A DNA stretch of 64,000 bases from Acidobacteriota bacterium (GTDB lineage Bacteria > Acidobacteriota > Polarisedimenticolia > Gp22-AA2), in NCBI GenBank assembly GCA_003223135.1, contig QHXX01000021.1:63674-127673 (forward strand), given 5' to 3'. The notes beneath the pieces were generated by a model that saw nothing but the letters and a program-made list of their open reading frames with translations, had not been told where the DNA came from and searched no databases. The first letter of the stretch is position 1, and each line of letters opens with the position of its first letter. The position numbers were made by a program, and so were the translations under genes. Shown piece by piece: positions 3,818-45,211 of this stretch.

Positions 3818-3888
3818 GGCGGAGAATGTGGGGTGCGGTAACGTTCCATTGCCCCGGTCCTCCGGGGAGTGGGCCGGCGCCTGTCGAT

Positions 3889-5175: not shown

Positions 5176-5674
5176 CGGGTTTCCTCCTTCCGCGCGGCTC
5201 CGCCGCGGGCACGCCCAAGGACGCGAACAACCTGTCAGTGTCGAGCAGGACGATGACCTCCCCGTCCCGGTGCAGGACGCGCTTCACGTAGGCGTCGCTC
5301 ACGCCGCACGGCGCCGCAGCACCGTCCGCGCGACCGGCCTCCGTTTCCGTCTCCTCGACCAGGTCGACCCGGTCCCCCAGAAGACCGAGGGCCACTTCCC
5401 CCCAGTCGCACACGATGAGGTGACCGGACTCGGCGACCGGCCCCGCGGGTGCCGGGGGCCGCTGTCCCGACCAGAGCGGATCGAAACGCTTCAGGTCATA
5501 AACCGGAAGCGCCACGCCCCCGTGCAGGGCCACGCCGCTCACGAACGCGTGGCTCCCTGGCACGCGCACGACGCGCGGTCGCTCCGTCACCTCGCGCACG
5601 ATGCCGAGCGGAAGGGCCGCTCCGGCGCTCCCGACGCGAAAGCCGATCAGCCGGGCGCCCGCGCTGTCGCTCAC
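5150..5674 (-). CDS. CheW-like domain protein
   Basis: LIGFRVG...LPLGIVREV...VRVPGSHAFVSGVALHGGVALPVYDL...GLLGDRVD...LLDTDRLF fits the CheW pattern. Confidence 0.7.
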   Translation of the reverse strand: MSDSAGARLIGFRVGSAGAALPLGIVREVTERPRVVRVPGSHAFVSGVALHGGVALPVYDLKRFDPLWSGQRPPAPAGPVAESGHLIVCDWGEVALGLLGDRVDLVEETETEAGRADGAAAPCGVSDAYVKRVLHRDGEVIVLLDTDRLFASLGVPAAEPRGRRKPGEDDRAGG

Positions 5675-6057
5675 AGGAGCCCGTTCTCGTCCAGGAGCAG
5701 GCGCGGGTCACGGCCGTCCGAAAAGACGCCGCGAAAGGCGCGCCGGGGACGCGCGAAAATGAACGCCGGGAGCGGAGCAATGTCGCCCGCGGGGACATCG
5801 CGGATGGCTTCGGCGCCGTCGACCGGGACGATGGCGCGTCGGCGCGAGCCCTCCAGGAGAAGGTACACGGGCGAGGGCCCGCGTCGCTCTCCCACCGCGG
5901 CGTGCAGGTCCAGAACCGGGAAGCGCTCGCCGCGATACACGGCCTCCGACTCCTCAAGGTGGAAATCGACTTCGACCGCCGGGTCGACAATCTGCGCCAC
6001 CGCGTCGGCCGGCACCGCGTAGCGACCTTCACCGACGCTCACCATGAGGAGTTTCAT
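5671..6057 (-). CDS. CheW-like domain protein (short)
   Basis: GRYAVPADAVAQIV...YRGERFPVLDL...AIVPVDGAEAI...LLLDENGLL; 4-nt overlap with the next gene. Confidence 0.7.
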   Translation of the reverse strand: MKLLMVSVGEGRYAVPADAVAQIVDPAVEVDFHLEESEAVYRGERFPVLDLHAAVGERRGPSPVYLLLEGSRRRAIVPVDGAEAIRDVPAGDIAPLPAFIFARPRRAFRGVFSDGRDPRLLLDENGLL

Positions 6058-6069
6058 GCCCCTGCGCCA

Positions 6070-6098
6070 AAACTAGCCCAAAGGGTGGAGCCTGTCAA
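6070..6098 (-). promoter_or_regulatory. sigma70-type promoter for the cheW-cheW-romR-like genes
   Basis: Minus strand TTGACA (6098-6093), 17 bp, TAGTTT (6075-6070); ends 12 nt before the ATG at 6057. Confidence 0.6.
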
Positions 6099-6115
6099 GA
6101 AAAGCGTCAAGGCCT

Positions 6116-6532
6116 TCAGCGGCGGCGGGGCGGGACGTTGGTCTTCACCCACTCAACGACGTCCTGGGTGCTGGCGCCCGGGGTGAAGATCTGCCGGACG
6201 CCGGCCCGCTTCAGAGCCGGGATGTCCTCATCCGGGATGATGCCCCCGCCGAACACGACGATGTCGGGGTCGGTCTTCTCCGCGAGGAGCCTCAGGATCT
6301 TCGGGAAGATCGTGTTGTGGGCGCCGGAGAGAAGGGACAGCCCGATCCCGTCCACGTCCTCCTGCAGGGCAGTGGCGACAACCATCTCCGGCGTCTGGTG
6401 AAGACCGGTATAGATGACTTCGAACCCGGCGTCCCTGAGGGCCCGGGCGATGATCTTGGCGCCGCGATCGTGTCCGTCCAGTCCCACCTTGCCGACCAGG
6501 AGCCGGACCTTTCTCTCCCCGCTCATCGTCAC
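6116..6532 (-). CDS. cobalamin-binding small subunit of acyl-CoA mutase (IcmB/MutB-like)
   Basis: DGHDRG (DxHxxG) B12 motif and SLLSGAH; 138 aa stand-alone. Confidence 0.92.
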
Positions 6533-8220
6533 AGCTGCACCCGGCCTTCGCGGTACGCGCCGAAGACCGTCTTCAACGTGTCGCAGATCTCTCCGACCGA
6601 GGCATAGGCCCGCACGGCATCCAGGATGGCGGGCATCAGATTCTCCTTCGTCCGCGCCGTGTGCTCGAGCCTCTTCAGGACCTTGGCGTGCCGGTCCTTC
6701 TCACGGCGCTGGCGGACGGTCTCCAGGCGGGCCACCTGGCCAGGCTCGACCTCGGCGCCGATCTTGAGGGTCGGCGCCTTCATGTTGTCCCCTTCGGAGT
6801 AGCGGTTGACGCCCACGACGATTTTCTCGCCGGCGTCGACCTGTCTCTGGTACAGGTAGGCCGCCTCGGCGATCTCGCGCTGCGGAAAGCCCTGTTCGAT
6901 CGCGGGAACGATCCCGCCCATCTGGTCGATGCGGTGGATGTAATCCCATGCCATCAGCTCCAGGCGGTCGGTGAGCGCCTCGACGAAGTAAGACCCCGCC
7001 AGAGGATCGACCGTGTTCACGACACCGCTTTCCTCCGCGATGATCTGCTGGGTGCGGAGCGCGATACGGGCCGAATTCTCCGTCGGCAGAGCGAGCGTCT
7101 CGTCCAGGGCGTTGGTGTGCAGCGACTGCGTCCCTCCCAGGACGGCCGCGAGGGCCTGGAGCGTCACGCGCACGACGTTGTTGATCGGCTGCTGCGCGGT
7201 GAGCGAACAGCCGGCCGTCTGGACGTGTGTGCGCAGCATCCAGGAGCGCGGGGACTTCGCGTGGAAACGATCGCGCATGAGGGCGCACCAGACGCGCCGT
7301 GCCGCGCGGAGCTTGGCAACCTCTTCGAAGAAATCGTTGTGCGAGTTGAAGAAGAAGGAGAAGCGGGGAGCGAACACGTCGACATCGAGCCCGGCATCCA
7401 CGCAGGACTGCACGTAGCCGATCCCGTCGGCCAGGGTGAACGCCAGCTCCTGCGCGGCGGTCGAGCCGGCCTCGCGAATGTGGTAGCCGCTAATCGAGAT
7501 GGTGTTCCACTTCGGCACGCGCTCGGCGCAGAAGGCGACCATGTCGGTGATGATCCGCAGCGAGGGCACGGGAGGATAAATCCATTCCTTCTGCGCGATG
7601 TATTCCTTCAGGATGTCGTTCTGCACCGTGCCCTCGAGCTTTTCGAGCGGCACGCCCTGCTTTTCGGCGACGGCCAGGTACATTGCCAGAACGACGGCGG
7701 CCGGGGCGTTGATCGTCATGGACGTGGAAACCTTGTCGAGTGGAATGCCCTTGAACAGCACCTCCATGTCGGCCAGCGTGTCGATGGCCACCCCTTCGCG
7801 CCCGACCTCCCCCTCTGCCAGGGGGTCGTCCGAGTCGCGCCCCATGAGCGTGGGGAGGTCGAAGGCGACCGACAGGCCGGTCTGGCCGTGCTCCAGCAGA
7901 TAGTGGAACCTCTTGTTGGTGTCCTCGGCGGTCCCGAAGCCGGCAAACTGCCGCATGGTCCAGAGCCTGCCGCGATACATCGTCGGATGGACGCCGCGCG
8001 TGAACGGCGGCTCGCCGGGGAATCCGAGCTTGCCGGCGGGGTCCCAACCTTTCAGGTCCTCCACCGCGTACAGTCGCTCGATCGGCAGGTTGGAGACGGT
8101 CGTGAACTCCTTCTTCCTTTCCGGCTTCTTCCCGAGGGCATGGCCCAGCGTGTTCTCCTCCCAGTCCCGCCGGGTGCGCGTGGTCACCGTCGAGGTCCGG
8201 CCTCCATTTTTCGGTTTCAT
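6529..8220 (-). CDS. B12-dependent acyl-CoA mutase large subunit with isobutyryl-CoA mutase-type residues (IcmA-like)
   Basis: [59 protein letters not shown]; no B12 domain in this chain. Confidence 0.9.
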
Positions 8221-8221
8221 T

Positions 8222-9367
8222 TCAGTCCTCTTTCAGGATCTCCTTGGCGATCACCAACCGCTGGATCTCGGACGTGCCTTCGTAGATCTCGGTGATCTTG
8301 GCGTCCCGGAACAGCCGCTCCACCGCGTACTCGTCGATGTACCCGTAACCGCCGTGGATCTGCACTCCTTCTTTCGCCGCCCGCATGCAGGCCTCCGAGG
8401 CGAACAGCTTGGCCATGCTGGTCTCGAGCGAGCAACGCCTCTGCTGGTCACGCAGCCAGGCGGCGCGGTAGGCCAAAAGACGCGCCGCCTCGAGCTCGGT
8501 GGCCATGTCGGCGAGCTTCCACTGGGTGGCCTGGAAGTCGGCGATGCGCTGGCCGAAGGCGCGCCGCCCCTGACTGTAGGCCAGCGATTCCTCCAGTGCG
8601 GCGCGCCCGATTCCGATTGCCTGGGCCGCGATGCCGATGCGGCCGCCGTCCAAGGTGCTCATGGCGATCTTGAATCCTTCCCCTTCGGCCCCCAGCAGAT
8701 TGGCCGCCGGCACCTCGCAGTCGTCGAGCACGATCTCGACGGATCCAGAGCAGGTAATGCCCATCTTGTGCTCCGGCTTTCCGAGACGGAGACCGGGGAA
8801 GTCCCGCTCGACGATGAACGCGCAGATCCCGTGGTGGCGCAGCTTCGGGTCCAGCGTGGCGTACACCACGAACGTGTGCGCCGCCACTCCGTTCGTGACG
8901 AACACCTTGTTGCCCTTCAGAAGGTAGCGATCGGCCTTCTTCCGGGCCAGGGTACGCAGCGCCGCCGCGTCCGAGCCGCAGTCGGGCTCGGTCAGACAAT
9001 ACGCCCCGATCTTTTCTCCGCGCGCGTGCGGCGCCAGGTACTTCCGCTTCTGCGCCTCCGTCCCGTGGCGCAGGACCGGGGCGCAGAACAGAGAGTTGTT
9101 GACCGACAGGATGACGCCGCTCGAGGCGCAGGCGCGCGACACCTCTTCGATGGCGATGACGTAGGAGACACCGTCGAAGCCGGCGCCGCCGTAAGTCTCC
9201 GGGACCATCATGCCGCACAGACCGAGCTCGGCGCAGCGCCGGTAATTGTCGATCGGAAACTCCCGGCTGCGATCGAGCGCGGCGGCCCGGGGCTTCAGCA
9301 CTTCGTCCGCGAAGGCGTGCACGGTGTCCCGCAGCAGCTCCTGCTCCCGCGTCAGCTGGAAGTCCAT
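8222..9367 (-). CDS. acyl-CoA dehydrogenase (short/branched-chain family)
   Basis: Start placed at ATG 9367 (MDFQLTREQ); [37 protein letters not shown]. Confidence 0.93.
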
Positions 9368-12244: not shown

Positions 12245-14054
12245 CCGACTGAACGTCCTTGGCTTCGGGCTTGAGGGTGATCCACGTCCGGGCGCCGCGC
12301 GCGGATTCGGTCAGAATCCTATCCCCCGCCAGATCGAATGTCAACGTCTTGCCCCGGAGGGTACGGCCGGTCGCGGCATCGACGACCTCCGCCAGACCCT
12401 CCCCGTCCTTCAGCACCAGGACGTCGTCCGCGGCGTGGTACTCGGCGGTGCGCGCCGTCCCGAAGGCCTGGTCGCGTTTCACGGCAACGGAACCCGTCGC
12501 CACGACGTGGTCGAGCTCGCGCGTACCGGCCCGATCCACGAGGTAGGCGTCCATGGCGTCGGCCGTGAGGGTGGCGTCCTCGCGCGTCAGGTGCACGTTG
12601 TCGCGGTACCGCCCGACCCCCTGCGCGTCGTCGAACACCATGCTGGCTGCCGTCACGGAAGCCACGGTGGGTCGCGAGGGGATTCCGGAGCCCGTGGCGT
12701 GACGCTGGGTGAAACGGGCCATGACGTCCCCCGTTGCGCGCAGCTGCCGTGCCTGCTGATCGAGGACGATCTCCTCCGCCTGGATGCTGTTCCCCTCTTG
12801 CCAGGCCCGCGCCGAGCCGGCGTACACCGCGCGCTGCGCCGCCTGGTCGTACAGCAGGGTCCGGGCCTGGAACGAGACGGCCGACTTTTCTCCGAAACCC
12901 GGGGTCGCCGCACCCGCCTTGCCCGAGGGCATGGACACGGTGCGCACGTCGCCGCGCGCCTCGAGAATCTTCGCCCCGGCCTTGACGTCAATCTCCTGGG
13001 CGGCGATCCGGTCGCTGGCGCTCATGACCACGGGGTCGCCGCGCAGCTCGACGAGGTCAGAGGCGGCGCGGTAACGGGCCGAGCGGCTGCGGGAGGTGTA
13101 CGGACCGTAGGTGACCCGGCAGCTTCCCGAGAGCTCGGCCTCGCGGAGCTCGCCACTGGGCCCGGCGAACAGCGAGGCCAGGCTGTCGGCGCGCATCTCG
13201 CGCACGGTGCCGTCCGGACCCGGGGCGCCCGTGATGACGACGTCTCCGAAGGCATGCATCTGTCGCACCGCCTTGCGCCCCTCGTCGAACTGGACTTTGA
13301 GATAATTCGCATACAGCACATCGCCACCCCGCTCCAAGCGGACGTTGTCTGTGAACACCGCCGCGTTGGATTCCAGGACGGCCACCAGGTCACCGGACGA
13401 AATCGTCGCCGGCAGACCGGCCTCCGCGGCGGAGATGCGCAGGACGACCCGGTCGGGAATCTTGATCTGCCGCTCCGCAACCAGGTAGTTCATCCCCCGT
13501 CCCTGTCCCGAGAGGCCGCCGACGGTGAACACGATGTCGTCCGCCGTGAAGATCATGTCGCGCTCGTTGTCGTAGAAGAGCGTTCCGGTCCGCAGCGACA
13601 GACCTTCGGACTCGCTCTCCACGGTGACGTCGCCCGACAGCCGCGCCCGCCGGTCGGTCACATCGAACTGCCCCTCGATGCCGGACACCTTGACGTTGCC
13701 ACCGCGGTCGTCGTGGATCAGGAGCTCGACACCCTGGAGGAGCTTGCGATCTCCGGCAAACCCGGTGACGCTTCGGGCCCGCAGCGTGAAGGCCGGCCGA
13801 CCCTCGCGGCTGCCGTTCACCTCGAACTGGTCGGACCGATCGACCACGGGACCCTGCTGCGCGGGTGTCGGGGAGGACGGGGCCATGGTGATGTCGGTCT
13901 GGGGTCTCCCCTTGCGTCCGTAGCTCATGATGACCGCCAGGCTGAACCCGGCCAGGACCATGAGCACCAGGACGCGCAGGACCATGACGGCACGCAGGGG
14001 TCGCCAGTGGATCCGGTGACTGCCCTGTGGCTGGTCCGCCATGTCCCCCCTCAA
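12222..14054 (-). CDS. LptC/LptA-like multi-OstA-domain LPS transport bridge protein
   Basis: N-terminal TM helix followed by repeated beta-rich OstA-like segments over 610 aa; sits directly before lptB. Confidence 0.75.
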
Positions 14055-14836
14055 CGACCCTTGAAGGCCGGCTTGCGCTTCTCGACAAAGGCCCGGGTCC
14101 CCTCACGCATGTCCTCGGTGGCGCAGCACAACCCGAAGAGGGCGGCCTCCATCGACAGTCCTTCGTTCAGGGTCGTCTGCAGCCCCTCGTGCACCGCCTG
14201 GAGGGCGTAGCGGAGCGCCACCGGGCCGCGCGTCAGGATCGTGCGGGCCAGCGCCTCGGCCGCGGGAAGGAGCTCCGCCGCAGGAACCACCCGGTTCAGC
14301 AGGCCGATGCGCAGCGCTTCCCGCGCGTCGATCGGCTCGCCCGTGAGGATCATCTCCAGGGCGCGCCCTGCGCCGACGAGGCGCGCGAGGCGCTGCGTCC
14401 CACCGTATCCCGGGATGATTCCGAGCGCCACCTCCGGTTGCCCCAGCTTCGCCGACTCGGCGGCCACGCGAAGCGTGCAGGCCATCGCCAGCTCCAGACC
14501 GCCGCCCAGAGCGTAGCCATTGATCGCGGCGATGCTCGGTTTGCCGAGCCGTTCCAACCGATCCAGGACCGCCTGTCCCGCGCGGGCGTAAGCTGTCCCC
14601 TCGACCGGGGTCTGTGATGCAAGCTCTCCGATATCCGCCCCGGCCACGAACGCCTTCTCGCCTGCGCCGGTGATGATCAGGACCCCGACCGACGGGTCCT
14701 GGCCGGCCGACGCCACGACCCGGTCGATCTCCTGCACCGTCTGGCGGTCCAGGGCGTTGAGCTTCTCGGGGCGGCTGATGGTGATGCGCGCGATCCCGTT
14801 CTTCGTTCCGTACAGCACCCTCGTCGAGCCGTTCAT
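14051..14836 (-). CDS. enoyl-CoA hydratase (crotonase)
   Basis: AFVAGADI, GYALGGGLELAMAC, GQPEVALGIIPGYGGTQRL. Confidence 0.93.
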   Translation of the reverse strand: MNGSTRVLYGTKNGIARITISRPEKLNALDRQTVQEIDRVVASAGQDPSVGVLIITGAGEKAFVAGADIGELASQTPVEGTAYARAGQAVLDRLERLGKPSIAAINGYALGGGLELAMACTLRVAAESAKLGQPEVALGIIPGYGGTQRLARLVGAGRALEMILTGEPIDAREALRIGLLNRVVPAAELLPAAEALARTILTRGPVALRYALQAVHEGLQTTLNEGLSMEAALFGLCCATEDMREGTRAFVEKRKPAFKGR

Positions 14837-14845
14837 CGTCGCTCC

Positions 14846-15736
14846 TCAGCTGCGGGTGAGAAAGTCGTTCGGCTTCGGGGGCTCGGATGCGTAATCGTAA
14901 AATCCCTTGCCGGTCTTGCGACCGTGGAATCCGGCCAGCACCATCCTCTTCATCAAGGGCGGCGGCGCAAACCTCCTCTCACGGAACTCGTCGAACATGA
15001 TATTGGCAATGTAATACGTGGTGTCGATCCCGACCAGATCCAGCAGCGTAAAGGGGCCCATGGGATGGCCGCAGCCCAGCTTCATCCCCTGGTCGATATC
15101 AACAATCGTGCCGACGCCTTCCTCCAGGGCGCGGATCGCGTCCAGGATGTACGGCACGAGAAGACGGTTCACTATGAAACCGGTGCGGTCCAGGGCCCGG
15201 ATCGGTACTTTCCCGAGGCCTTTCGCGAACTTCAACACCGTCTCCTCGACCTCCGGATCGGTCTGAATGGTGCGCGTGATCTCAACCAGCTTCATCAGGG
15301 GAACCGGGTTGAAGAAATGCAGCCCCACGAAACGCTGCGGTCTCTTCGTGGCCACCGACATTTCCGTGATCGAGAGGGACGAGGTGTTGCTGGCGAGGAT
15401 CGCCTCGGGCTTGAGAGTACGTTCGAGTCGCTGGAACGCCTCCTGCTTGGCCGGCAGGTTCTCCACCACCGCCTCGATCACGAGGTCGCAATCGGCGAGG
15501 GCGGCGTAGTCGGTCGTGCCCGCCAGGCGGGACAGGGTCGCCTGCTTCTCCTCAGGACGGACCTTCCCACGGGACACTCCGTTCGAGAGGAACTGGTCGA
15601 TCCGCTTGAGGCCGGCGTCCAGAAGCTCCTTCGAGACTTCGAGCACCGTCGTCGGGTGACCGGATTGCGCCGCCACCTGGGCGATCCCCGACCCCATGAG
15701 CCCGCACCCCAGGACTCCGACCTTTCTGATCTCCAT
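14846..15736 (-). CDS. hbd: 3-hydroxybutyryl-CoA dehydrogenase
   Basis: Start MEIRKVGVLGCGLMGSGIA; SNTSSLS, GLHFFNPVP, GFIVNRL, HPMGP. Confidence 0.92.
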   Translation of the reverse strand: MEIRKVGVLGCGLMGSGIAQVAAQSGHPTTVLEVSKELLDAGLKRIDQFLSNGVSRGKVRPEEKQATLSRLAGTTDYAALADCDLVIEAVVENLPAKQEAFQRLERTLKPEAILASNTSSLSITEMSVATKRPQRFVGLHFFNPVPLMKLVEITRTIQTDPEVEETVLKFAKGLGKVPIRALDRTGFIVNRLLVPYILDAIRALEEGVGTIVDIDQGMKLGCGHPMGPFTLLDLVGIDTTYYIANIMFDEFRERRFAPPPLMKRMVLAGFHGRKTGKGFYDYASEPPKPNDFLTRS

Positions 15737-15776
15737 GTCGTTCCCTCCGGCCCCTGGCGAGGGGCGCCCCGGACGG

Positions 15777-16991
15777 TTAGCCTTTGGTTCCTGAGGCCGC
15801 CTCGACCAGGACGGCGATCCCCTGGCCGCCTCCGATGCAGGCACTGGCGATGCCGTAGCGGCCCCCGCGCCTGCGGAGTTCGAGGAGAAGCGTCAGGACC
15901 AGCCTCGTCCCGGTGGCTCCGAGCGGGTGGCCCAGGGCCACCGCCCCGCCGTTGACATTGACCCGGGCGCGATCCAGCCCGAGCTCCTTCTCGACCGCGA
16001 GATACTGCGCGGCGAACGCCTCGTTGATCTCGAACAGGTCGATCTCCTGAAGCCTGAGGCCGGCGCGCTCCAGCGCCATCCGGATGGCCGGCACCGGGCC
16101 GATGCCCATGATGCGCGGCGGTACGCCGGCCACACCATAGGTGATCACCCGGCCGAGCGGTTTCGTCTTGACGCCGGGGGCGGCCGCGGGCGACGCCACG
16201 ACCACCGCCGCCGCTCCGTCCACGATGCCCGAGGCGTTGCCGGCGGTGACGTACCCTTGCCCTTGGAAGGCCGGCGGCAGCTTGGCCAGCCCCTCCAGGG
16301 TCGTGTCCGGCCGGCGGTGATTATCCTCTGCGATGACGGTCTCCTTGCCCCGCTCGCGCACCGTCACCGGGACGATCTCCTCCTTCATTCGGCCCGCCCT
16401 GTAGGCCGCGTCGGCCGCCTGCTGGCTGCGCAGGGCGTACCGATCGGCCTCTTCCCGGGTGATGCCGCGCTCAATCGCCAGGGTCTCGGCGGTCTGCGCC
16501 ATGGAACAGCCGCAGTGCGTATCCATCAGTCCGACCAGAAGGGAGTCCTCGAGCTGCGCGTGGCCCATGCGCAGGCCGGACCGCAGCCCGCGCGCCACGT
16601 GCGGCGCCTGTGTCATGTTCTCCATGCCACCGGCCAGGACCAGGTCCGCTTCCTGCAGGTGGACGAGCGACGCGGCGGTGACGATCGCCTGGATCCCCGA
16701 CCCGCACAGGCGGTTGACCGTCAGCGCCGGAACCGCGTCCGGGAGACCGGCCTTCAGCCCGACGTGACGGGCCCCGTACATGGCATTGCCGCTGGTCTGC
16801 ATGGCATTGCCGAACACGACGTGGTCCACGCGGGCCGGATCCGCCCCGGCTCGACGCAGCGCCTCGCGCCCCGCGATGGCCCCCAGCTCCACTTCCGTGA
16901 TGTCCTTGAAGTGGGTGTTGAGTTCGGCCATCGGCGTGCGGGCGCCCGCCAGGACGACCGATTCGAAGATCGGCGAACGGCGACCGCTCAT
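15777..16991 (-). CDS. acetyl-CoA C-acyltransferase (thiolase)
   Basis: [30 protein letters not shown]. Confidence 0.95.
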
Positions 16992-37097: not shown

Positions 37098-37838
37098 TCA
37101 GCCGTTCAGAACCTGCACCCGGCTCCCCGGCACGAGCGCGTCCTCGCCGTCGTCGAACCGGACCCAGGCCTTCGTGCCGGCGTCGTAGTCGCGCGCCAGG
37201 ACGATGAGGCGAGCCTCGCGGCCGAGGGCCAGGCATCGCCGCCGCCCCTCGGGGTCGTGTCCGAGCATCGCCCGGATGAACGGGTTTCCCGTGCGTTCCG
37301 CCCCGACGGTGGTCGGACCGGCATGTCCCGGGTGGACGGGGGTATCGTCCGGGAGGCACAGGATTCGGTCGACGGCCCGGCGGGCGTCCTCGAACCCGCT
37401 GTTCCCGGGGGCGACCGTTCCTCCCAGAGAGCCGGCGAAGAGGCAGTCCCCGGTGAAGAGTCCGACCCCACCGATGAGATAACCGGCATGTCCCGAGGTA
37501 TGCCCGAGGAGGGGGACAGCGCGGACGTGCAGGCCGCCCCATAGGCGCTCCTCCTCGAATTCGAGCGTCCCGGCGCCCACGACGTGCGGCGCCTCCGGGG
37601 CGAGGGCGAAGATCGGCGCACGCATCGCGCGGGCCAGCTCCGCGTGTCCTTGCACGTGATCGATGTGTCGGTGAGTGGTCAGGATCGCGGCCAACCTCAG
37701 CTTGTGACGCGTGAGCGCCGCGACAAGCGGGGCGATCGGCGCTCCGCTGTCGATCACGACGGCGGCTCCTCCCACACGCTCACCCACGAGGTAGGCGTTC
37801 GACAGCCAGCCTGGATCCATGGATCGCTCGAGGATCAC
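37098..37838 (-). CDS. MBL-fold metallo-hydrolase (glyoxalase II-like)
   Basis: SNAYLV, THRHIDH (HxHxDH), GHTSGH, FTGDCLF, PGH; GTG start. Confidence 0.88.
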   Translation of the reverse strand: MILERSMDPGWLSNAYLVGERVGGAAVVIDSGAPIAPLVAALTRHKLRLAAILTTHRHIDHVQGHAELARAMRAPIFALAPEAPHVVGAGTLEFEEERLWGGLHVRAVPLLGHTSGHAGYLIGGVGLFTGDCLFAGSLGGTVAPGNSGFEDARRAVDRILCLPDDTPVHPGHAGPTTVGAERTGNPFIRAMLGHDPEGRRRCLALGREARLIVLARDYDAGTKAWVRFDDGEDALVPGSRVQVLNG

Positions 37839-38246
37839 GGCCGGAAGTCTACAGCAACGTGGTCTTCGGGTCGGAAAACGGCCCGATGCGGTTCGCGGCT
37901 TTGCCGGCTGAGGTATCCCCAGTTTGGGGCGCCGTCCGTCGCTCACTTCCGCACGCCCCCGCGCACGCAGGGCCGTCGCCCTCCTCCGGTGATCCTTCAC
38001 GCCTCTCAAGCCAGAACCAGGTTCGGGCGCAACAGACGGACACCGCTCGCCAGCCGTCTGGCATGCTCCCCCCAGCACATCCGCCCCAGGGGCGTGTCTT
38101 CGGGACTACCTGCCATCTCTGGCCAGCTGCGTTCGGCTTCTGCGTCCCGTCCTGGTGCGGCTATGAAGAGCGGCAGTTCCCGGTTGGCAAACGGAGGGAT
38201 CTCCAGTGGCATGTGGCAACTCGGAATGGCTCAGCTTTGCCGGCAC

Positions 38247-38285: not shown

Positions 38286-38741
38286 ATGCCCGGCAAGTAC
38301 TTCGAGGACCTCGCGCCAGGACAGCGCCTTCGGCACGCCGTCGGCCGGACGATCACCGAGGCCGACAACACGCTGTTCTGCGCCCTGACGATGAACACGC
38401 AGCCTCTGCACCTGAACCAGGACTTCGCCGCAAAAAGCGAGTTCGGCCAGAGGATCGTCAACGGGATTTTCACGCTCGGTCTCGTCGTCGGCTTGACCGT
38501 CTCCGATCTTACCGAGGGGACCATCGTGGCAAACCTCGGCTACGAGCGGGTCGTGCATCCGCTGCCGGTCTTCCTCGGCGATACCCTCTATGTCGAGACC
38601 GAGGTCCTCGAGAGCCGGCCGTCGGTCTCGAGTCCGGACCGCGGCATCGTCCGTCTGCGTCACCGCGGGCTGAACCAACGCGGCCAGATCGTGATCGAGG
38701 TGGACCGATCGGTCCTGTTCCTGCGGCGACCTTCGTCGTGA
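38286..38741 (+). CDS. MaoC-family (R)-specific enoyl-CoA hydratase
   Basis: YFEDL, GRTITEADN, MNTQPLHLN, GTIVANLG, PVFLGDTL hot-dog motifs. Confidence 0.9.
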   Translation: MPGKYFEDLAPGQRLRHAVGRTITEADNTLFCALTMNTQPLHLNQDFAAKSEFGQRIVNGIFTLGLVVGLTVSDLTEGTIVANLGYERVVHPLPVFLGDTLYVETEVLESRPSVSSPDRGIVRLRHRGLNQRGQIVIEVDRSVLFLRRPSS

Positions 38742-39697
38742 CGCGCCCGCCGCGCCGATCCGTCGGTCGAATTCGGCCGAGCGCGGAGCCCGATCTTTCG
38801 ATCGACGTCCTGCCACCACGCCGCGCGCTCTTGTTTTGTCCCGCCACGGAGTGGAGCAGGCTCGAGAAGGCGGCGGGCCTCGGGGCCGACGTCGTCATCC
38901 TCGACTTGGAGGACGGCGTGGCTCTGTCGCGCAAGGCGGATGCGCGCGCCGCCGCGGCGCGGGCTCTGTCGGAATTGGACTTCGGGCGCAGCGAGCGCCT
39001 GGTGCGGGTGAACCCGCCCGGCTTGGGGCTTTTGGAGGACGTGCGGGCCACCGGCTCCGTCCGCCGGCCACCGGATGGTTACGTTCTTCCCAAGATCGGG
39101 TCGGCCGCGGAGGTGAAGGCGTTCGCCGGCCTGTTGCGCCGTCTCGAGCGCCGGGCCCGCCTGCGGTCCGGGACCATCCGCATCCTCGCCATCATCGAGA
39201 CGGCGCTCGGCATCGTCAACCTGAAGGAGATCGCCGGCTGCGACCCGCGCCTGGTGGCCCTCATCTTCGGAGCCGAGGACCTGTGCGGCGACATGGGCGC
39301 CGTGCGCACGCGCGAGGGGCGCGAGGTGGCCTATGCCCGCTCGGCCGTCGCCATCCACGCGGCGGCGCGCCGGCTGCAGGCGATCGACACGCCATTCGTC
39401 GACCTGCAGGATGAGAAGGGTCTGGTCGCACAGACGCGCGAGGCGCTCACGCTCGGCTACACCGGGAAACTGGCCATCCACCCCAAACAGATCGGGCCGA
39501 TTCAGGAGACCTTCACGCCGCGGCCCGAAGAGATCGAGGAGGCACGTCGCCTGATCGAAGAGCACGATCGGCAGCAGGCGCGGGGGGCGGGCGTCTTCGT
39601 CCTCGGCGGCAGGATGATCGACATGCCCATGGTGCGGGCCGCCCGGGCGGTCCTGGCCCGGGCGCGCGCCGCGGGGCTCCGGGGCAGGAACGGCTAG
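38738..39697 (+). CDS. CitE-family acyl-CoA lyase (HpcH/HpaI)
   Basis: RRALLFCP, ILDLEDGV, LVRVN, IET, FGAEDL, GKLAIHPKQ. Confidence 0.9.
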   Translation: MTRPPRRSVGRIRPSAEPDLSIDVLPPRRALLFCPATEWSRLEKAAGLGADVVILDLEDGVALSRKADARAAAARALSELDFGRSERLVRVNPPGLGLLEDVRATGSVRRPPDGYVLPKIGSAAEVKAFAGLLRRLERRARLRSGTIRILAIIETALGIVNLKEIAGCDPRLVALIFGAEDLCGDMGAVRTREGREVAYARSAVAIHAAARRLQAIDTPFVDLQDEKGLVAQTREALTLGYTGKLAIHPKQIGPIQETFTPRPEEIEEARRLIEEHDRQQARGAGVFVLGGRMIDMPMVRAARAVLARARAAGLRGRNG

Positions 39698-40215
39698 CCG
39701 GGCAAGGTCTCCCCGGACGGCTCCGGCTCCAGATCGACAAGGACCCGGCCGCGCTCGACGACGTCGCCGGGCGCGCAGGAGATTGTCCGCACCCGCCCCG
39801 GGAAGGGGGCGACCACGCGCATCTCCATTTTCATCGCTTCGAGGACGACGAGCGTCGCCCCCGCCTCGACACGATCCCCCTGTCTCGTCATGACCGCCAC
39901 CACCTGGCCATCCATGGCCGCGGTGAGTCGCCCGTCGGCGGGGCCCGCGGGCCCTGTGGCCCTGCGGGCGCCCTCCGTGCGCAGGATGGTCACGGGATCG
40001 CGGTCGCCGACCTTGATGATGCGCCGCTCGCCGTCGGACACCACGATCGCCTCAACCGGATGACCCTCGACCAGCAGATCGAGCAGGGGGCCGTCCGAAC
40101 GGCGCACGACGACATCGAACGACCGCCCCTCCAGGACGACACGGTAGCCCGGAGCCTGGGCCTCGACGCGCACCCACCTCGTCACCTGACCTGACCGGAA
40201 GTGAAGAAGCATCAC
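39694..40215 (-). CDS. biotin carboxyl carrier subunit
   Basis: EAMKM biotinylation motif preceded by a beta-rich BT-like region. Confidence 0.88.
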   Translation of the reverse strand: MMLLHFRSGQVTRWVRVEAQAPGYRVVLEGRSFDVVVRRSDGPLLDLLVEGHPVEAIVVSDGERRIIKVGDRDPVTILRTEGARRATGPAGPADGRLTAAMDGQVVAVMTRQGDRVEAGATLVVLEAMKMEMRVVAPFPGRVRTISCAPGDVVERGRVLVDLEPEPSGETLPG

Positions 40216-41741
40216 GTCGCTCCCGTCCGGAAGCCGTCGAGCCGGCCCCAGGGACTGAAGAGATCGGTCTCTTCGTCGCCCGTTCCATGGGACAGCGCCG
40301 CCTGCACCGGCGCCGGCCGGAGCGTGTCGGCCAGGGCCGCGGCGATCAAAACATCGTCGGGGAGGCCTGCGGCCTGTGGCCGCCAGGCGGAGAGATCGCG
40401 CTCGACGAACGAGGTCGTCGCCGCACCTCCGCGGAACACGGGGTGGGCGAGGATCGTCCTCAGAAAGGAGAGGTTGGTCTCGACCCCCAGGATCGCCGTC
40501 TTCCCCAGCGCCTCCTGCATCCGCTCCAGGGCGCCCTGACGGTCGCGGGCGTGGACGATGATTTTAGCGAGGAGGGAATCGTAGTACGGGCTCACGACGT
40601 CCCCCGTCGCGACACCGGCATCCACCCGGATCCCGGCGCCCGAAGGGAAGGAGGCGAGAAGGATACCGCCGGCGGACGGCGTGAAACCGCGCGCCGGGTC
40701 CTCGGCGTTCACCCGGCACTCGAGCGCGTGGCCGTCTTGACGCACATCCTCCTGCCTCACGGGGAGCGCCTCGCCGGAGGCAATCCGGATCTGCGCCCGC
40801 ACCAGGTCGACCCCCGTGACCATCTCCGTGACCGGGTGTTCCACCTGGATGCGGGTGTTCATCTCCAGGAAGAAGAACCGGCGGTCCATTCCGACGAGGA
40901 ATTCTATCGTCCCTGCATTCACGTAATCGCAGGCCCGCGCCGCCGCGACCGCCGCTTGTCCCATGTCCTCGCGCATCCTCGCGTCGAGGAGGGGCGAGGG
41001 AGACTCCTCGACGATCTTCTGAAAGCGGCGCTGGATCGAGCACTCGCGCTCGAACAGGTGAAGGCAGCCACCGCGCGCGTCGGCCAGCACCTGCACCTCG
41101 ACGTGCCGAGCTTCTTCGATGACCTTCTCAAGAAACAGCCGCGCGTCCCCGAACGCCTTGAGCGCCTCGCGCCTTGCGCTCTCGACAGCGCCGCCCAGCT
41201 CCTCCGGCGCGCGCACGACACGCATGCCGCGCCCTCCCCCGCCGCCCGCCGCCTTGACGAGAACGGGATACCCGATCCTGTCCGCCTCGCGGCGGAGCAA
41301 CACGTCGTCCTCGTCACCTGTCCCCTCGAAGCCGGGTACGACCGCGACTCCCGCGGCGGCCATCGCCCGCCGCGCGGCCATTTTGTCCCCCATCAGCCTG
41401 ATGGCGGCGGCCGGCGGGCCGACGAAGATCAGACCGGCACGCTCCACCTCTTCGGCGAACTCGGGGCTTTGCGCCAGGAAGCCGTAGCCCGGGTGGATCG
41501 CCTCGCAGCGGCGTTCGCGGGCGGCCCCGATGATTCGGTCGGTCCTGAGGTAGCTTGCGGCGGCGGGCGGCGGACCGATCGGGACGGTCTCGGCGGCGAC
41601 GCGGGTGTGCAGGGCGCCATCATCGGCTTCGCTCGCGACCGCGACCGGGACGATCCCGAGGGCGCGGCAGGCGCGCGCGATCCGGACGGCGATCTCGCCG
41701 CGGTTGGCAATCAGAAGTCTGGTGATGGGTCCGGACCGCAC
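40212..41741 (-). CDS. biotin carboxylase subunit (MccA/AccA1-like)
   Basis: LIANRGEIA, HPGYGFL, ECSIQRR, EMNTRIQVEHPVTE, YYDSLLAK. Confidence 0.93.
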   Translation of the reverse strand: MRSGPITRLLIANRGEIAVRIARACRALGIVPVAVASEADDGALHTRVAAETVPIGPPPAAASYLRTDRIIGAARERRCEAIHPGYGFLAQSPEFAEEVERAGLIFVGPPAAAIRLMGDKMAARRAMAAAGVAVVPGFEGTGDEDDVLLRREADRIGYPVLVKAAGGGGGRGMRVVRAPEELGGAVESARREALKAFGDARLFLEKVIEEARHVEVQVLADARGGCLHLFERECSIQRRFQKIVEESPSPLLDARMREDMGQAAVAAARACDYVNAGTIEFLVGMDRRFFFLEMNTRIQVEHPVTEMVTGVDLVRAQIRIASGEALPVRQEDVRQDGHALECRVNAEDPARGFTPSAGGILLASFPSGAGIRVDAGVATGDVVSPYYDSLLAKIIVHARDRQGALERMQEALGKTAILGVETNLSFLRTILAHPVFRGGAATTSFVERDLSAWRPQAAGLPDDVLIAAALADTLRPAPVQAALSHGTGDEETDLFSPWGRLDGFRTGAT

Positions 41742-41745
41742 CGGA

Positions 41746-43356
41746 TCACATCCGGAACACGCCGAAGCGCGTCGTCTCGATCGGAGCGTTCAGGCAGGCC
41801 GACAGGGCCAGACCCAGGACCCGCCGCGTCTCCGGAGGGTCGAGGATACCGTCGTCCCACAGGCGCGCGGTCGAATAGTAGGGGCTCCCCTCGCGCTCGT
41901 AGCTCTCCAGGATCGGCCGCTGGAACTCCTCGGCCTCCTTCGCCGGCATCGGCGGCGCGCCGCGGCGCGCCCGTTGCTCCTGCTGCACGGTGAGCAGGAC
42001 CCCCGCGGCCTGTTCCTTCCCCATGACGCTGATCCGCGCGTTCGGCCACATGAACAGGAAGCGCGGCCCGTAGGCCCGCCCGCACATGCCGTAGTTCCCG
42101 GCGCCAAAGGAGCCGCCGATGATCACCGTGATCTTGGGGACGGCGGCATTGGCGACCGCGTGCACCATCTTCGCCCCGTCCTTGGCGATCCCGCCCTGCT
42201 CGTACTCCCTGCCGACCATGAACCCGGTGATGTTCTGCAGGAACAAGAGCGGGACGCCGCGCATGGCGCACAGCTCGATGAAGTGCGTGCCCTTGAGGGC
42301 GCTCTCGCTGAACAGGACGCCGTTGTTGGCCAGGATGCCGACGGGGTATCCTTCGATCCGCCCGAAACCGCACACCAGGGTCGTGCCGTACAGCGCCTTG
42401 AACTCGCGGAAGCGGCTGTCGTCCACGACGCGGGCGATCACCTCGCGCACGTCGTAGATCTCCCTGAGACTGCGAGGAACGATCCCGTAAATCTCGAGCG
42501 GATCGTAGCGCGGCTTCTCCGGTGCGGCCAGGTCGAGCGTCACCCGCTTCTTCACATTGAGTCCGGCGACGATGTGACGCGCCTGCTCCAGGGCGTCCTC
42601 GTCGTCCACGGCGTAATGATCGGCGACACCCGATTTGCGCGTGTGCACGTCGGCCCCGCCCAGCTCTTCCGCCGATACGTCGACGCCCGTGGCCGCCTTC
42701 ACCAGCGGCGGCCCTCCCAGGAAAATCGTACCGGTCCCCTTGACGATGATCGTCTCGTCGCTCATGGCCGGGACATACGCCCCTCCGGCCGTGCACGAAC
42801 CCATGACGACCGCAATCTGAGGGATGCCCGAAGCGCTCATGCGCGCCTGGTTGAAGAAAATGCGTCCAAAGTGATCGCGGTCGGGGAACACCTCCGCCTG
42901 CAGCGGCAGGAAGGCGCCGCCCGAGTCGACCAGGTAGACACACGGCAGCCGGTTCTCTTCCGCGATCGCCTGGGCGCGCAGATGCTTCTTGACCGTCATC
43001 GGGTAATAGGTTCCGCCCTTGACCGTCGCATCGTTGGCCACGATCATGCATTCGCGACCGGAGACACGTCCGATGCCGGTGACGATACCGGCGGCGGGCG
43101 CCTCGCTCTCGTACATCCCGTGCGCGGCGAGCGGTGCGATCTCGAGGAGCGGCGATCCCGGATCGAGGAGCCGGTCGATCCGGTCGCGGACGAAGAGCTT
43201 GTGCTGCTGTGTGTGTCTTTCGTGGGCCTGCGCGTCGCCTCCCTGGCGTGCCCGGGCCAGGTGCCGCTTCACCTCTTCCGCGAGCGCGCGGTTGGCGGCC
43301 TCGTTCAGCCTGAATTCGGGATCGTCGGCTCGGATCTTCGATTCGATCGGGACCAT
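41746..43356 (-). CDS. 3-methylcrotonyl-CoA carboxylase beta subunit-like carboxyltransferase (MccB/AccD1)
   Basis: [61 protein letters not shown]; start MVPIES. Confidence 0.92.
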
Positions 43357-43445: not shown

Positions 43446-44576
43446 TCAGCCCAGGAGCCGGTGAGCGTCCAGACGGATGAGGCCGAGCCTCCAGGCGCGC
43501 AGGCCCGGGATCTCTCCCGGTCTCTCCAGCGCCTGCGGGCCGACCGCCGCCAGCGCCTCGAGTGTCGACTGGGGAAACAGGACGCCCGGATCGAGGCCGA
43601 GCTCGGCGGCGCGTGTCTTGCGCCACTCGCGCAGGCGCTCGAGCCGGTTCTGCATGGCGGATGTTTTCTTGCGCGGACGCCCTCTCGGCGGCGCCGGCAG
43701 GTCCGCCGTCACCAGGAGCCCCGCGCGCACGGCCTCGAGAACGTCGGATCCGATCCGGCGACGTACCAGCGGCGTCAGCCCACGGACGCCGTTGAGGTCG
43801 GAAGAACCGGCCGGCATCTTCTTCGCCAGGGCCAGGAGCGCCTCGTCGGAGATGATCCGGAAGGGCGACAGGTCAGCCTCCCGGGCGCGCCGGTCCCGCA
43901 TGGCGTAGAGCTCGCGCAGGACGGCCGCTTCTTGCGGAGGAAGATCCCGGGCCCCCTTGATGCTCCAGAACATGTCCGGGTCGAAGACGCGCGGCTCCCA
44001 GGCGCGACGGGCCACGAGCGAGAACTCCTCCTCGGCCCAGGCGAGCCGGCCGAGCGTGGTGAGTTCGTCCTTGAGAACGTCTCGCAGCCGGATCAGATGC
44101 CGGACGTCCTCGGAGGCGTAGGCCCTCTGTCGTTCGTTGAGCGGCCGGCGCGACCAGTCGTCGCGCTGAGACCCCTTGTCGAGCTTGACGCCGAAGTAGG
44201 CGAACAGGAGGCTCGCCAGTCCGATGCCGGTCTTCCCCAGGAGCTGCGAGCCGATCATCGTGTCGAACAGCGGCTCCAGGTGAAACCCGAAATCACGCCT
44301 CAGATAGAGGACGTCCTGCTCCGCGGCGTGCAACACCTTGACGATCCGTTGTGCTCCGAGAACCTCCCCCAGCGGCTCGAGGCGCCTCAGGGCGAGGGGA
44401 TCGACGAGATACACCGTCTCGCCGTCGGAAATCTGGATGAGGCAGCACTTGTGATGGTAGTGGTAGAAGGAGTCGGCCTCGGTGTCAACCGCCAGGGCGG
44501 AGGCTTTCGACAGGCGTTGCGCTGCGCGATCGAGATCCCGGTCGTCGTCGACCCAGACGTAGGCCGCGTGGACCAT
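43446..44576 (-). CDS. rnd: ribonuclease D (DEDDy exonuclease with HRDC domains)
   Basis: [35 protein letters not shown]; HRDC-like C-terminus. Confidence 0.88.
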
Positions 44577-45211
44577 CAACGCGGTCCCTCCGGCCCGGTA
44601 CGCGCCGGGACCAGGTGGCGGCGGACCCACCAGGCGGCACCGACGAGGAACAGGACCCCAATGAGGATGTCATATTTCCGGAAAGTGGACTCGAGGGTGT
44701 GCCAGTGCTCCCCCGTCTTGTACCCGAAGTACGCCAGGGCGTAGCAGAACGGGTACGAGCCGAGGAAGGTATAGAGGCTGAAGCGCATGAGCGGCATACG
44801 CGCCAGCCCGGCGGGGAGGGAAATGAACGTGCGCACGACTGGCATCAAACGACTGAAGAAGATGATCGGGCTGCCGTAGCGCGTGAACAGCCTGTCGGCC
44901 AGGTCGAGGTCGTGCCGGGAGATGAACACGTACCTCCCGTACCGCTCCACCAGGGGGCGCCCGCCCCGGGCCGCGACCGCGTAGGCCGCCCACGAGCCGG
45001 CGACGCAGCCGGCGGCGCCCCAGAAGGCCGCGCCGTGCAGGGTGAACTCCTGGCGGAACACGAGGTATCCCGAGAACGGCATGATGATCTCGGAGGGCAG
45101 GGGGATGGCGGCGCTCTCGATCGCCATCAACAGGAAGACGCCGAAGTAGCCCAGGCTGCTGATGGTCGCGGTGATGAACGCGGCCATCCACTTCAAGACG
45201 TCGGTGACCAA
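44576..45211 (-). CDS. DedA family membrane protein
   Basis: ESAAIPLPSEIIMPFSG, SRLMPVVRTFISLPAG. Confidence 0.92.
   Translation of the reverse strand: MVTDVLKWMAAFITATISSLGYFGVFLLMAIESAAIPLPSEIIMPFSGYLVFRQEFTLHGAAFWGAAGCVAGSWAAYAVAARGGRPLVERYGRYVFISRHDLDLADRLFTRYGSPIIFFSRLMPVVRTFISLPAGLARMPLMRFSLYTFLGSYPFCYALAYFGYKTGEHWHTLESTFRKYDILIGVLFLVGAAWWVRRHLVPARTGPEGPR

Follow-up and report, generated by a model that had tools for sequence, protein, structure and literature searches.

How does a bacterium complete leucine breakdown when the genes beside its 3-methylcrotonyl-CoA carboxylase (MCC) include no HMG-CoA lyase of the usual family? The question is raised by a five-gene cassette within a 64,000-nucleotide stretch of DNA from an Acidobacteriota assembly (the window), where genes for a MaoC hydratase and a CitE-like lyase on the plus strand converge on those for a biotin carboxyl carrier protein (BCCP), a biotin carboxylase (BC) and an MCC-type carboxyltransferase (39694-43356, minus strand). 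The MaoC-type single hot-dog hydratase (38286..38741, plus strand; 151 aa; PF01575, 87.6 bits) is followed by a CitE/CLYBL-like beta-hydroxyacyl-CoA lyase (38738..39697, plus strand; 319 aa; PF03328, 174 bits), the start of the second gene overlapping the stop of the first by 4 nt. The opposite-strand stop codons of the lyase gene and of the gene for the separate BCCP subunit (39694..40215, minus strand; 172–173 aa; PF00364, Biotin_lipoyl, 58 bits) share the letters CTAG, and the BCCP start overlaps the stop of the BC gene (GTGATG), which encodes the biotin carboxylase subunit of a split MCC alpha (40212..41741, minus strand; 509 aa; Biotin_carb_N, CPSase_L_D2 and Biotin_carb_C). The MCC beta, or carboxyltransferase, gene (41746..43356, minus strand; 536 aa) begins with an ATG at 43356. 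A sequence-only reading of this DNA had described a MaoC and a CitE gene facing an MCC-like carboxylase with no classical LiuC or LiuE adjacent, and all five genes lie where, and run in the direction that, it had placed them. The flanks hold an unrelated MBL-fold hydrolase (37098-38078, minus strand) and an unrelated RNase D (43446-44630, minus strand), and in the cassette and these flanks we found no crotonase, no HMGL-family gene and no CoA transferase. Scanning 37–45 kb for promoters and terminators gave nothing informative.

By sequence, the carboxylase is of the MCC type, with 3-methylcrotonyl-CoA as its predicted substrate. Its carboxyltransferase scores 790 bits against Pseudomonas aeruginosa MCC-beta (3u9r) and 769 bits against M. 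tuberculosis AccD1 (4q0g), compared with 457 bits against the beta subunit of geranyl-CoA carboxylase (GCC; 5ikl) and at most 275 bits against PCC-beta; AccA1/AccD1 is an MCC (PMC4347857). Among the best PDB matches of the BC subunit is P. aeruginosa MCC-alpha (495 bits, residues 6-507 aligned). No NCBIfam equivalog was assigned to the carboxyltransferase, all scores being under cut-off, and another carboxyltransferase, of the PCC type, is encoded elsewhere in the genome (contig C108). The earlier view of an MCC-like enzyme that is neither geranyl- nor propionyl-specific is thus upheld. A geranyl-CoA carboxylase serving an acyclic-terpene (Atu-like) route would draw on the sister relationship of the GCC and MCC families and on the GCC-beta match, but we regard it as extremely improbable, as the MCC-beta score lies far over that of GCC and Atu-type neighbors are absent.

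The division of the alpha subunit does not remove any of its parts. The BCCP gene carries the end of the BT domain and a biotinyl domain with an EAMKM biotinylation motif, and the BC, BT and BCCP domains and the biotinyl-lysine motif of MCC alpha are all there, in two overlapping genes. The same BC and BCCP gene calls are made on independent metagenome contigs that encode an identical lyase (6 of 11 shown), and therefore the split is real. A sequencing artefact was considered as its cause and rejected, because the split recurs on these independent contigs. Relatives and Chloroflexota also have a split alpha subunit.

We consider it likely that the cassette carries out the lower part of leucine and isovalerate catabolism via MCC, the MaoC hydratase, the CitE-like lyase and (R)-HMG-CoA. 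Upstream, an acyl-CoA dehydrogenase (ACAD) encoded at 8222-9367 would convert isovaleryl-CoA to 3-methylcrotonyl-CoA. The three-subunit MCC (carboxyltransferase, BC and separate BCCP) would then form 3-methylglutaconyl-CoA, the hot-dog hydratase would hydrate it to (R)-HMG-CoA, and the Mg-dependent CitE/CLYBL-like lyase would cleave this to acetoacetate and acetyl-CoA. Most likely, the MaoC and CitE pair substitutes for the crotonase LiuC and the HMGL-family LiuE; as the two lyases differ in the HMG-CoA stereoisomer that they cleave, hydratase and lyase must be exchanged as a pair. The substrates of both enzymes, the (R)-stereochemistry and a side activity on itaconyl- and citramalyl-CoA are what we infer from the genes and their context. 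The cassette extends a known route that has already been shown in the tuberculosis bacterium, and is not new chemistry.

If the pair replaces the canonical enzymes, what do genomes with and without it contain? In the window's own genome, a 92%-complete metagenome-assembled genome, the HMG-CoA lyase model, whose cut-off is 246 bits, is matched at 25 bits at best, and the single HMGL-like gene encodes a 420-aa protein. No HMG-CoA lyase was found in nine genomes of the same genus, including ones that are 99-100% complete, which answers in the negative the earlier suggestion to look for liuE elsewhere. Among 31 genomes of relatives searched, 14 have MCC-beta together with the lyase (at least 57% identity) and all 14 are without HMG-CoA lyase; some of these are 99-100% complete, and the lyase adjoins MCC-beta wherever contigs allow. 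In 6 of the 31, the genes run mccB-BC-BCCP-hmgL, and the lyase is absent or present only as a 42%-identical paralogue. The two cluster types never occur together in these relatives. A branch of the MCC-beta tree (support 90) has the CitE-linked sequences on a single side, and those from the same family that are HMGL-linked group in a clade of their own (100*). A tail-to-tail cassette of this kind, likewise with the alpha subunit split, is found in Chloroflexota, and four Chloroflexota genomes that carry it have no HMG-CoA lyase. Genomic context thus supports the non-canonical leucine route of MCC, MaoC and CitE that the sequence-only reading had proposed, since LiuE is absent and the lyase and LiuE are mutually exclusive beside MCC.

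Within the phylum, the lyase's distribution is narrow: in a phylum-wide sample of 111 genomes, a close lyase occurs in 2, both of the window's genus (the window's genome and G004). At the relatives' canonical clusters no LiuC is adjacent, the neighbors being a kinase, a protease and a PQQ-repeat protein. Six crotonase-family genes are present in the window's genome, none beside MCC and none best matched by human methylglutaconyl-CoA hydratase (AUH). For the crotonase on contig C87, which neighbors an aldehyde dehydrogenase and a Zn-ADH-like gene, the best PDB match is 2PPY and AUH comes sixth (148 bits), a match that weighs against the replacement of LiuC.

Compared with the canonical Liu cluster (liuABCDE in Pseudomonas; mccB-BC-BCCP-hmgL in sister genera), the cassette has the same MCC, shares its split alpha subunit with the relatives and has the same predicted net conversion to acetoacetate and acetyl-CoA; however, a convergent CitE and MaoC pair stands at the position of the HMGL-family lyase, and HMG-CoA is predicted to be formed as the other stereoisomer. 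The mycobacterial system resembles the cassette in placing an MCC-type carboxylase, a small MaoC hydratase and a CitE-like lyase side by side and in not needing a canonical HMG-CoA lyase. It differs in its fused AccA1, as opposed to separate BC and BCCP, and in its co-directional, as opposed to convergent, genes. In addition, ACAD and ScoAB lie outside the block here. The label 'Mycobacterium-type' given earlier therefore holds for the enzyme families and for MaoC; it does not hold for the gene architecture (convergent, alpha split, no ACAD inside the block) or for the lyase, which belongs to another subclade, with 35-38% identity to the mycobacterial enzymes and PDB scores that place it closer to CLYBL.

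The cassette MaoC is orthologous to the genes at the Rv2499c position. A 23-row clade of the MaoC tree (99*) takes in all 17 MCC-linked MaoCs, including those at the Rv2499c position in the accD1-accA1-fadE19-maoC-citE operon of Mycolicibacterium and Nocardia; 41 positions are invariant across this clade, and identity to its actinobacterial members is 47-53%. The relation to Rv2499c claimed at the outset is borne out by this common clade. The cassette gene is the sole MaoC gene of the 92%-complete genome. Its highest-scoring NCBIfam model is RipB_Ich, at 135.5 bits against a cut-off of 340, which is too low to class it as RipB/Ich; as for the lyase, no NCBIfam equivalog was obtained, all scores being under cut-off. 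The best PDB matches are the N-terminal halves of the mesaconyl-CoA hydratases 8hgn and 4e3e, and PF19315 (mesaconyl-CoA hydratase) scores 62 bits.

These last matches, together with the malyl-CoA lyase 4l9y as the second PDB match of the CitE-like protein, would fit a mesaconyl-CoA hydratase and a malyl- or beta-methylmalyl-CoA lyase working in C2/C3 assimilation of the ethylmalonyl-CoA, methylaspartate or 3-hydroxypropionate type. Mesaconyl-CoA hydratases, however, have a double hot-dog fold and a length of some 350 aa, and the 151-aa cassette protein matches one half only. With the haloarchaeal malyl-CoA lyase model, the CitE-like protein reaches 79 bits where the cut-off is 500. A separate MaoC+ACAD+CitE clade from other Chloroflexota seems better suited to such a role, and neither the MCC linkage nor the exclusivity with LiuE would be explained. 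Such an assimilatory function is very unlikely.

The lyase, which has the CitE-like HpcH/HpaI fold, is the sole CitE-family gene in the genome and, because CitF was not found in that 92%-complete genome, it is not a citrate lyase. Its PDB scores are 187 bits for CLYBL, 151 for Mcl (4l9y), 145 for RipC and 103 for Rv2498c; the relation of CLYBL, RipC, PA0883 and Mcl to it is judged by bit scores only, the lyase tree being built from other sequences. It scores 211 bits with NCBIfam RipC_Ccl (cut-off 375) and 211 with TIGR01588 (cut-off 443). The Mg2+- and substrate-binding residues of Rv2498c (R64, E112 and G135-A-E-D138; residue list from PMC6689899) are all kept, while three residues of the pocket are exchanged (M133 to I, W134 to F and V181 to P) and an insertion of about 15 aa precedes the E112 equivalent. 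Substrate-pocket residues do not separate MCC-linked from unlinked members.

In the tree, the cassette lyase belongs to a clade of Binatia and Chloroflexota sequences (98*) and the Rv2498c orthologues, 35-38% identical to it, form a separate starred clade; a topology joining the two as sisters is not rejected (p-AU 0.52). The lyase of the mycobacterial accD1-accA1-fadE19-maoC-citE operon is an Rv2498c orthologue (329 bits to 6AQ4), and the best match of the cassette lyase in M. iranicum is likewise an Rv2498c orthologue. A reciprocal best hit to Rv2498c, as foreseen earlier, is therefore obtained as regards the best match in Mycolicibacterium, but its margin is narrow (118 versus 113.5 bits). 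For 22 of the 34 members of the lyase clade, the surrounding 9 kb hold neither a MaoC gene nor a carboxylase, and thus the clade is not dedicated to MCC.

Rv2498c cleaves both (R)-HMG-CoA and (S)-citramalyl-CoA, and the lyase of the itaconate pathway, PA0883, also cleaves (R)-HMG-CoA (PMC6689899). The only activity reported for Rv2499c in the literature consulted is that of an itaconyl-CoA hydratase (PMC11789021), and the main text of Wang 2019 makes no mention of Rv2499c. Could MaoC and CitE, then, be an itaconate (or mesaconate) dissimilation pair, an itaconyl-CoA hydratase and an (S)-citramalyl-CoA lyase that are just neighbors of MCC and take no part in breaking down leucine? The assayed activity of Rv2499c speaks for this, as do RipB/Ich as top NCBIfam model of MaoC, the RipC_Ccl score of the lyase, the citramalyl-CoA lyase CLYBL as its top PDB match and the name 'itaconyl-CoA hydratase' that close homologues bear in databases. 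But both model scores are far under their cut-offs, there is no adjacent CoA transferase, and the MCC product would have no lyase in the genome; moreover, it would go unexplained why the pair is so closely linked to MCC, tail to tail, in three phyla and why it and HMG-CoA lyase strictly exclude each other in relatives. We judge a pair confined to itaconate to be unlikely. Set beside the itaconate enzymes Ich/Ccl (RipB/RipC, PA0878/PA0883) and human CLYBL, which is its lyase's top solved-structure match, the cassette has hydratase and lyase folds in common with them and differs from Ich/Ccl in falling under the NCBIfam equivalog cut-offs and in being linked to MCC instead of an itaconate CoA transferase. 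The cassette lyase is possibly also a citramalyl-CoA lyase by prediction, and a dual role in leucine and itaconate use, as in M. tuberculosis, may form part of the leucine explanation that we favor.

Where is the step that feeds the carboxylase? An ACAD gene lies 30 kb from the cassette (8222..9367, minus strand) beside a split B12-dependent acyl-CoA mutase (6116..8220, minus strand; PF01642, 757 bits; PF02310, 87 bits), which comprises a large subunit (6529-8220) and a B12-binding subunit (6116-6532), both on the minus strand. This ACAD is 79-82% identical to the one heading an ACAD-mutase-MCC operon in the relatives L023 and L106, where ACAD-mutase-mccB-BC-BCCP form a single co-directional string and orthologues of the mutase stand between ACAD and MCC-beta. 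NCBIfam has no model that discriminates isovaleryl-CoA dehydrogenase (IVD), and synteny in relatives gave the better candidate; by best match, none of the four ACADs of the genome is IVD-like, and two compared with the PDB are Bcd-like and MCAD-like. The ACAD at 8222-9367 probably performs the isovaleryl-CoA dehydrogenase step. The genome also has BCAT, several 2-oxoacid dehydrogenase E1 genes and ScoAB, and acetoacetate is probably activated by this ScoAB-type CoA transferase, encoded on another contig.

By sequence the same ACAD is Bcd/AcrC-like rather than IVD-like, which, with the operon order in relatives, lends itself to another interpretation, whereby isobutyryl- or butyryl-CoA would be turned into crotonyl-CoA by an ICM-type mutase together with an ACAD that resembles butyryl-CoA dehydrogenase, the carboxylase would convert crotonyl-CoA to glutaconyl-CoA, and MaoC and CitE would proceed via 3-hydroxyglutaryl-CoA to acetyl-CoA and malonate semialdehyde. 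Both the supply of crotonyl-CoA and its carboxylation we hold to be quite unlikely: the carboxyltransferase is very close to proven MCC-beta, sister genera have members of this MCC clade next to the canonical HMG-CoA lyase, and a standard crt-hbd-thl route for crotonyl-CoA already lies in the window at 14051-16991. To our knowledge, no pathway of crotonyl-CoA carboxylation with a 3-hydroxyglutaryl-CoA lyase has been described.

More tentatively, the leucine route could be one part of a larger history. The cassette may have been mobile between Chloroflexota and one order of Binatia, with a CLYBL-like lyase recruited separately from the Rv2498c lineage. It is conceivable, though doubtful, that it completed an ancestral Binatia operon of ACAD, ICM/PCM-type B12 mutase and MCC, which might then, by an equally speculative step of the same account, channel pivalyl- or isovaleryl-CoA, beyond leucine, through (R)-HMG-CoA to acetoacetate.

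Within a single bacterial family, the MaoC/CitE pair and the canonical HMG-CoA lyase replace each other cleanly, and the pair turns up again in Chloroflexota and Actinomycetota; this alternation and recurrence yield a practical rule for reconstructing the metabolism of uncultured bacteria from soil and sediment. They also suggest that the (R)-HMG-CoA route is widespread; the experimental proof we found in the literature is for M. tuberculosis only, and in the papers covered by our searches we met nothing relevant on leucine metabolism in Binatota or on this route in organisms other than mycobacteria. The second, CLYBL-like lyase clade becomes a candidate for HMG-CoA lyase activity. In automatic annotation, the cassette genes bear the names 'citrate lyase beta subunit', 'MaoC family dehydratase', 'acyl dehydratase' and 'itaconyl-CoA hydratase', and carrier genomes therefore seem to be without the last steps of leucine breakdown.

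The five-gene layout proposed from the sequence alone holds in every part. On the plus strand, a 151-aa MaoC hot-dog protein (38286–38741) is followed by a 319-aa HpcH/HpaI (CitE-like) lyase (38738–39697), with a 4-nt overlap between the MaoC stop and the lyase start. The minus strand carries a 536-aa carboxyltransferase (43356–41746), a 509-aa biotin carboxylase (BC; 41741–40212) and a BCCP of 172–173 aa (40215–39694) with an EAMKM biotinylation motif, the last two overlapping at GTGATG. The lyase and BCCP stop codons overlap on opposite strands within CTAG (39694–39697), which leaves the two transcription units no intervening space for a terminator; convergent overlaps of 4–10 nt recur in Binatia and Chloroflexota (loci L009, L022, L044, L033 and L021). 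An identical lyase protein is found on 11 metagenome contigs. In the six listed, the neighbors and the BC/BCCP split are the same over the length that each contig covers, ruling out an assembly error as the source of the split. Two metagenome contigs have a nucleotidyltransferase/HepT-like toxin–antitoxin pair between MaoC and CitE (L107:7465–8335; L109:7474–8347). The cassette is flanked by RNase D and an MBL-fold, glyoxalase-II-like hydrolase (37098–38078), which is divergent from MaoC and keeps its position in two same-genus genomes (L021 and L022; 72–77% identity), not in other genera; a thioesterase-type role is conceivable.

The carboxylase is of the 3-methylcrotonyl-CoA (MCC) type, as had been claimed. 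Among PDB chains, the carboxyltransferase scores 790 bits to Pseudomonas aeruginosa MCC-beta and 769 bits to Mycobacterium tuberculosis AccD1, versus 457 bits to geranyl-CoA carboxylase beta and no score above 275 bits to propionyl-CoA carboxylases; the geranyl-type match notwithstanding, carboxylation of geranyl-CoA is scarcely credible. The BC is nearest to MCC-alpha chains, with an alignment that reaches into the BT domain, and a separate propionyl-type carboxyltransferase is encoded on another contig of the same genome.

Among solved structures, the lyase scores highest to human CLYBL (187 bits), followed by a malyl-CoA lyase (151 bits) and RipC (145 bits), with PA0883-like and Rv2498c chains at about 103–105 bits. 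The window lyase conserves the Mg2+ and substrate residues identified in Rv2498c (PMC6689899), differs at three pocket residues and has an insertion of about 15 aa. The proposed best-hit relationship to Rv2498c was borne out narrowly in M. iranicum, where the orthologue of Rv2498c ranks first (118 versus 113.5 bits). MaoC matches half of the mesaconyl-CoA hydratases 8hgn and 4e3e and is also similar to the small MaoC proteins 1q6w, 4ffu and 3exz; the structures nearest to Rv2499c (4e3e, 2bi0, 4ffu and 3exz) overlap this set (PMC11789021). The mesaconyl-CoA hydratase and malyl-CoA lyase matches would suit mesaconyl/malyl-CoA chemistry for the pair, set against the adjoining MCC-type carboxylase, and we consider such chemistry very improbable. 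The RipC match could likewise indicate a pure itaconate pair; the lyase falls below the NCBIfam cut-offs for both CitE proper and RipC/Ccl, MaoC falls below that for RipB/Ich, and this assignment appears unlikely. An additional itaconyl-CoA or citramalyl-CoA activity of the two enzymes is possible.

The cassette's MaoC and lyase are the only MaoC and CitE-family genes in the genome, a 3.7-Mb MAG that is 92% complete. A search of this genome for an HMG-CoA lyase elsewhere, the check suggested at the outset, returned none (best NF004283 match 25 bits, cut-off 246 bits), and no CitF was found in it. It does encode BCAT-family genes and several 2-oxoacid dehydrogenase E1 genes. Among its six crotonase-family genes, similarity singles out none as methylglutaconyl-CoA hydratase, and among its four acyl-CoA dehydrogenases (ACADs) none as isovaleryl-CoA dehydrogenase. 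A ScoAB-type CoA transferase adjoins a butyryl-CoA-dehydrogenase-like ACAD on contig C38 (G000; L016:2649–6601). This transferase could activate acetoacetate; it shares 54–59% identity with the Sco genes that adjoin MaoC–CitE in L101, from a Mycobacterium MAG. On the window's minus strand, a thiolase, a 3-hydroxyacyl-CoA dehydrogenase and a short-chain enoyl-CoA hydratase (14051–16991) form a butyrate-type beta-oxidation block.

We searched 31 relatives' genomes with the lyase, MCC-beta and the HMG-CoA lyase model. Fourteen encode MCC-beta and a window-type lyase (at least 57% identity), adjacent wherever they share one contig, and HMG-CoA lyase was found in none of the 14, including two same-genus genomes that are 99–100% complete. 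Six others (G010, G012, G013, G017, G024 and G029) have an HMG-CoA lyase 2–3 kb from MCC-beta and no close copy of the window lyase. The two types occupy different genera of the same family, and the alternation covers no fewer than five genera with one arrangement and six with the other, kin that are not independent. In the MCC-beta tree, the CitE-linked carboxylases share one side of a branch with support 90, and the HMGL-linked sequences of the family form their own clade (support 100). The five HMGL-type clusters that we fetched (all but that of G012: L017, L018, L019, L020 and L025, from G013, G017, G010, G024 and G029, respectively) have the order mccB–BC–BCCP–hmgL and also split MCC alpha. 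The split is therefore a lineage trait, older than the lyase exchange.

The leucine catabolic reading first made from the sequence is the most economical one, although we infer its substrates and stereochemistry. MCC would produce 3-methylglutaconyl-CoA, from which MaoC would form (R)-HMG-CoA by adding water, and this product would be split by the CitE-like lyase into acetoacetate and acetyl-CoA. Rv2498c and PA0883 use (R)-HMG-CoA, while PA2011 uses (S)-HMG-CoA (PMC6689899); since the two lyase families have opposite stereospecificities, LiuE would have to be exchanged for lyase and hydratase as a pair. The enzyme set, shared with the window cassette, and the route are already known from M. 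tuberculosis (PMC6689899, PMC4347857), and we found no description of the route in lineages beyond it in the literature searched. What is new is the Binatia/Chloroflexota form of the cassette, the CLYBL-like lyase subclade and the clean alternation with LiuE within one family.

A scan of species genomes yielded 80 loci, against which tblastn identified carboxylase-linked copies in Binatia, Chloroflexota and Actinomycetota. In Binatia and Chloroflexota (Anaerolineae, Caldilineales) they are tail-to-tail, as in the window, with stop overlaps of 4–10 nt or gaps below 25 nt; in contrast, the actinobacterial operon is co-directional (accD1–accA1–fadE19–maoC–citE), and its lyase in Mycolicibacterium, scoring 329 bits to 6AQ4, is orthologous to Rv2498c. 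No HMG-CoA lyase was found in four Chloroflexota genomes with the cassette. Three of four long contigs picked solely by MaoC identity (at least 74%) have convergent biotin carboxylase genes within 4 kb. In both the lyase and MaoC trees, a contig labeled uncultured Gammaproteobacteria (L102) that has the actinobacterial operon falls within Mycobacteriaceae, which suggests mis-binning or recent transfer. A separate MaoC–ACAD–CitE trio in Limnocylindria and other taxa (L069, L072, L073, L080, L085, L092 and L095) falls into clades of its own in both of these trees and probably serves a different acyl-CoA route.

The description of the cassette as Mycobacterium-type stands for the enzyme families and for MaoC, with the lyase in a different subclade. 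All 17 carboxylase-linked MaoC sequences, with six from the same taxa, form one clade (support 99; 41 invariant positions) divided into actinobacterial and Binatia/Chloroflexota halves, making the window MaoC the counterpart of the Rv2499c-position gene. The window lyase groups with same-genus genomes in a Binatia and Chloroflexota clade of 34 sequences (support 98; eight carboxylase-linked, 22 without MaoC or carboxylase within 9 kb), separate from the Rv2498c clade (support 99). With the nearest named locus coming from a 'Candidatus Binatia bacterium', this grouping makes the source organism most probably a member of Binatia. A tree joining the window-lyase and Rv2498c clades was not rejected (AU test, P = 0.52), so the two may or may not share a single origin. 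Within the window's phylum the lyase was found solely in the window's own order, and it is nested among Chloroflexota sequences, a distribution suggesting that the cassette was transferred laterally.

In one relative (G011; L023:2063–12572) and a 560-kb metagenome contig (L106:2130–14456), the gene order around the cassette is the same: valyl-tRNA synthetase, response regulator and two CheW genes, then MaoC–CitE convergent with BCCP–BC–MCCbeta, then a B12-binding subunit, acyl-CoA mutase and ACAD, with ACAD, mutase and MCC in one co-directional operon. In the window and its genus, these flanks are contiguous (1166–9367) with no cassette inside, and the window cassette is found 30 kb from them, with the MBL-fold gene on one side and RNase D on the other, indicating that the 5.1-kb block relocated as a unit. 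The operon link raises the possibility that the split mutase (large and B12-binding subunits, 6116–8220) has isovaleryl-CoA/pivalyl-CoA mutase activity. A crotonyl-CoA/glutaconyl-CoA route tied to this mutase would draw on the same link; weighed with the carboxylase's MCC-type scores, it is quite improbable. Under the leucine reading, the ACAD at 8222–9367 is the leading candidate for the dehydrogenase step that feeds MCC.
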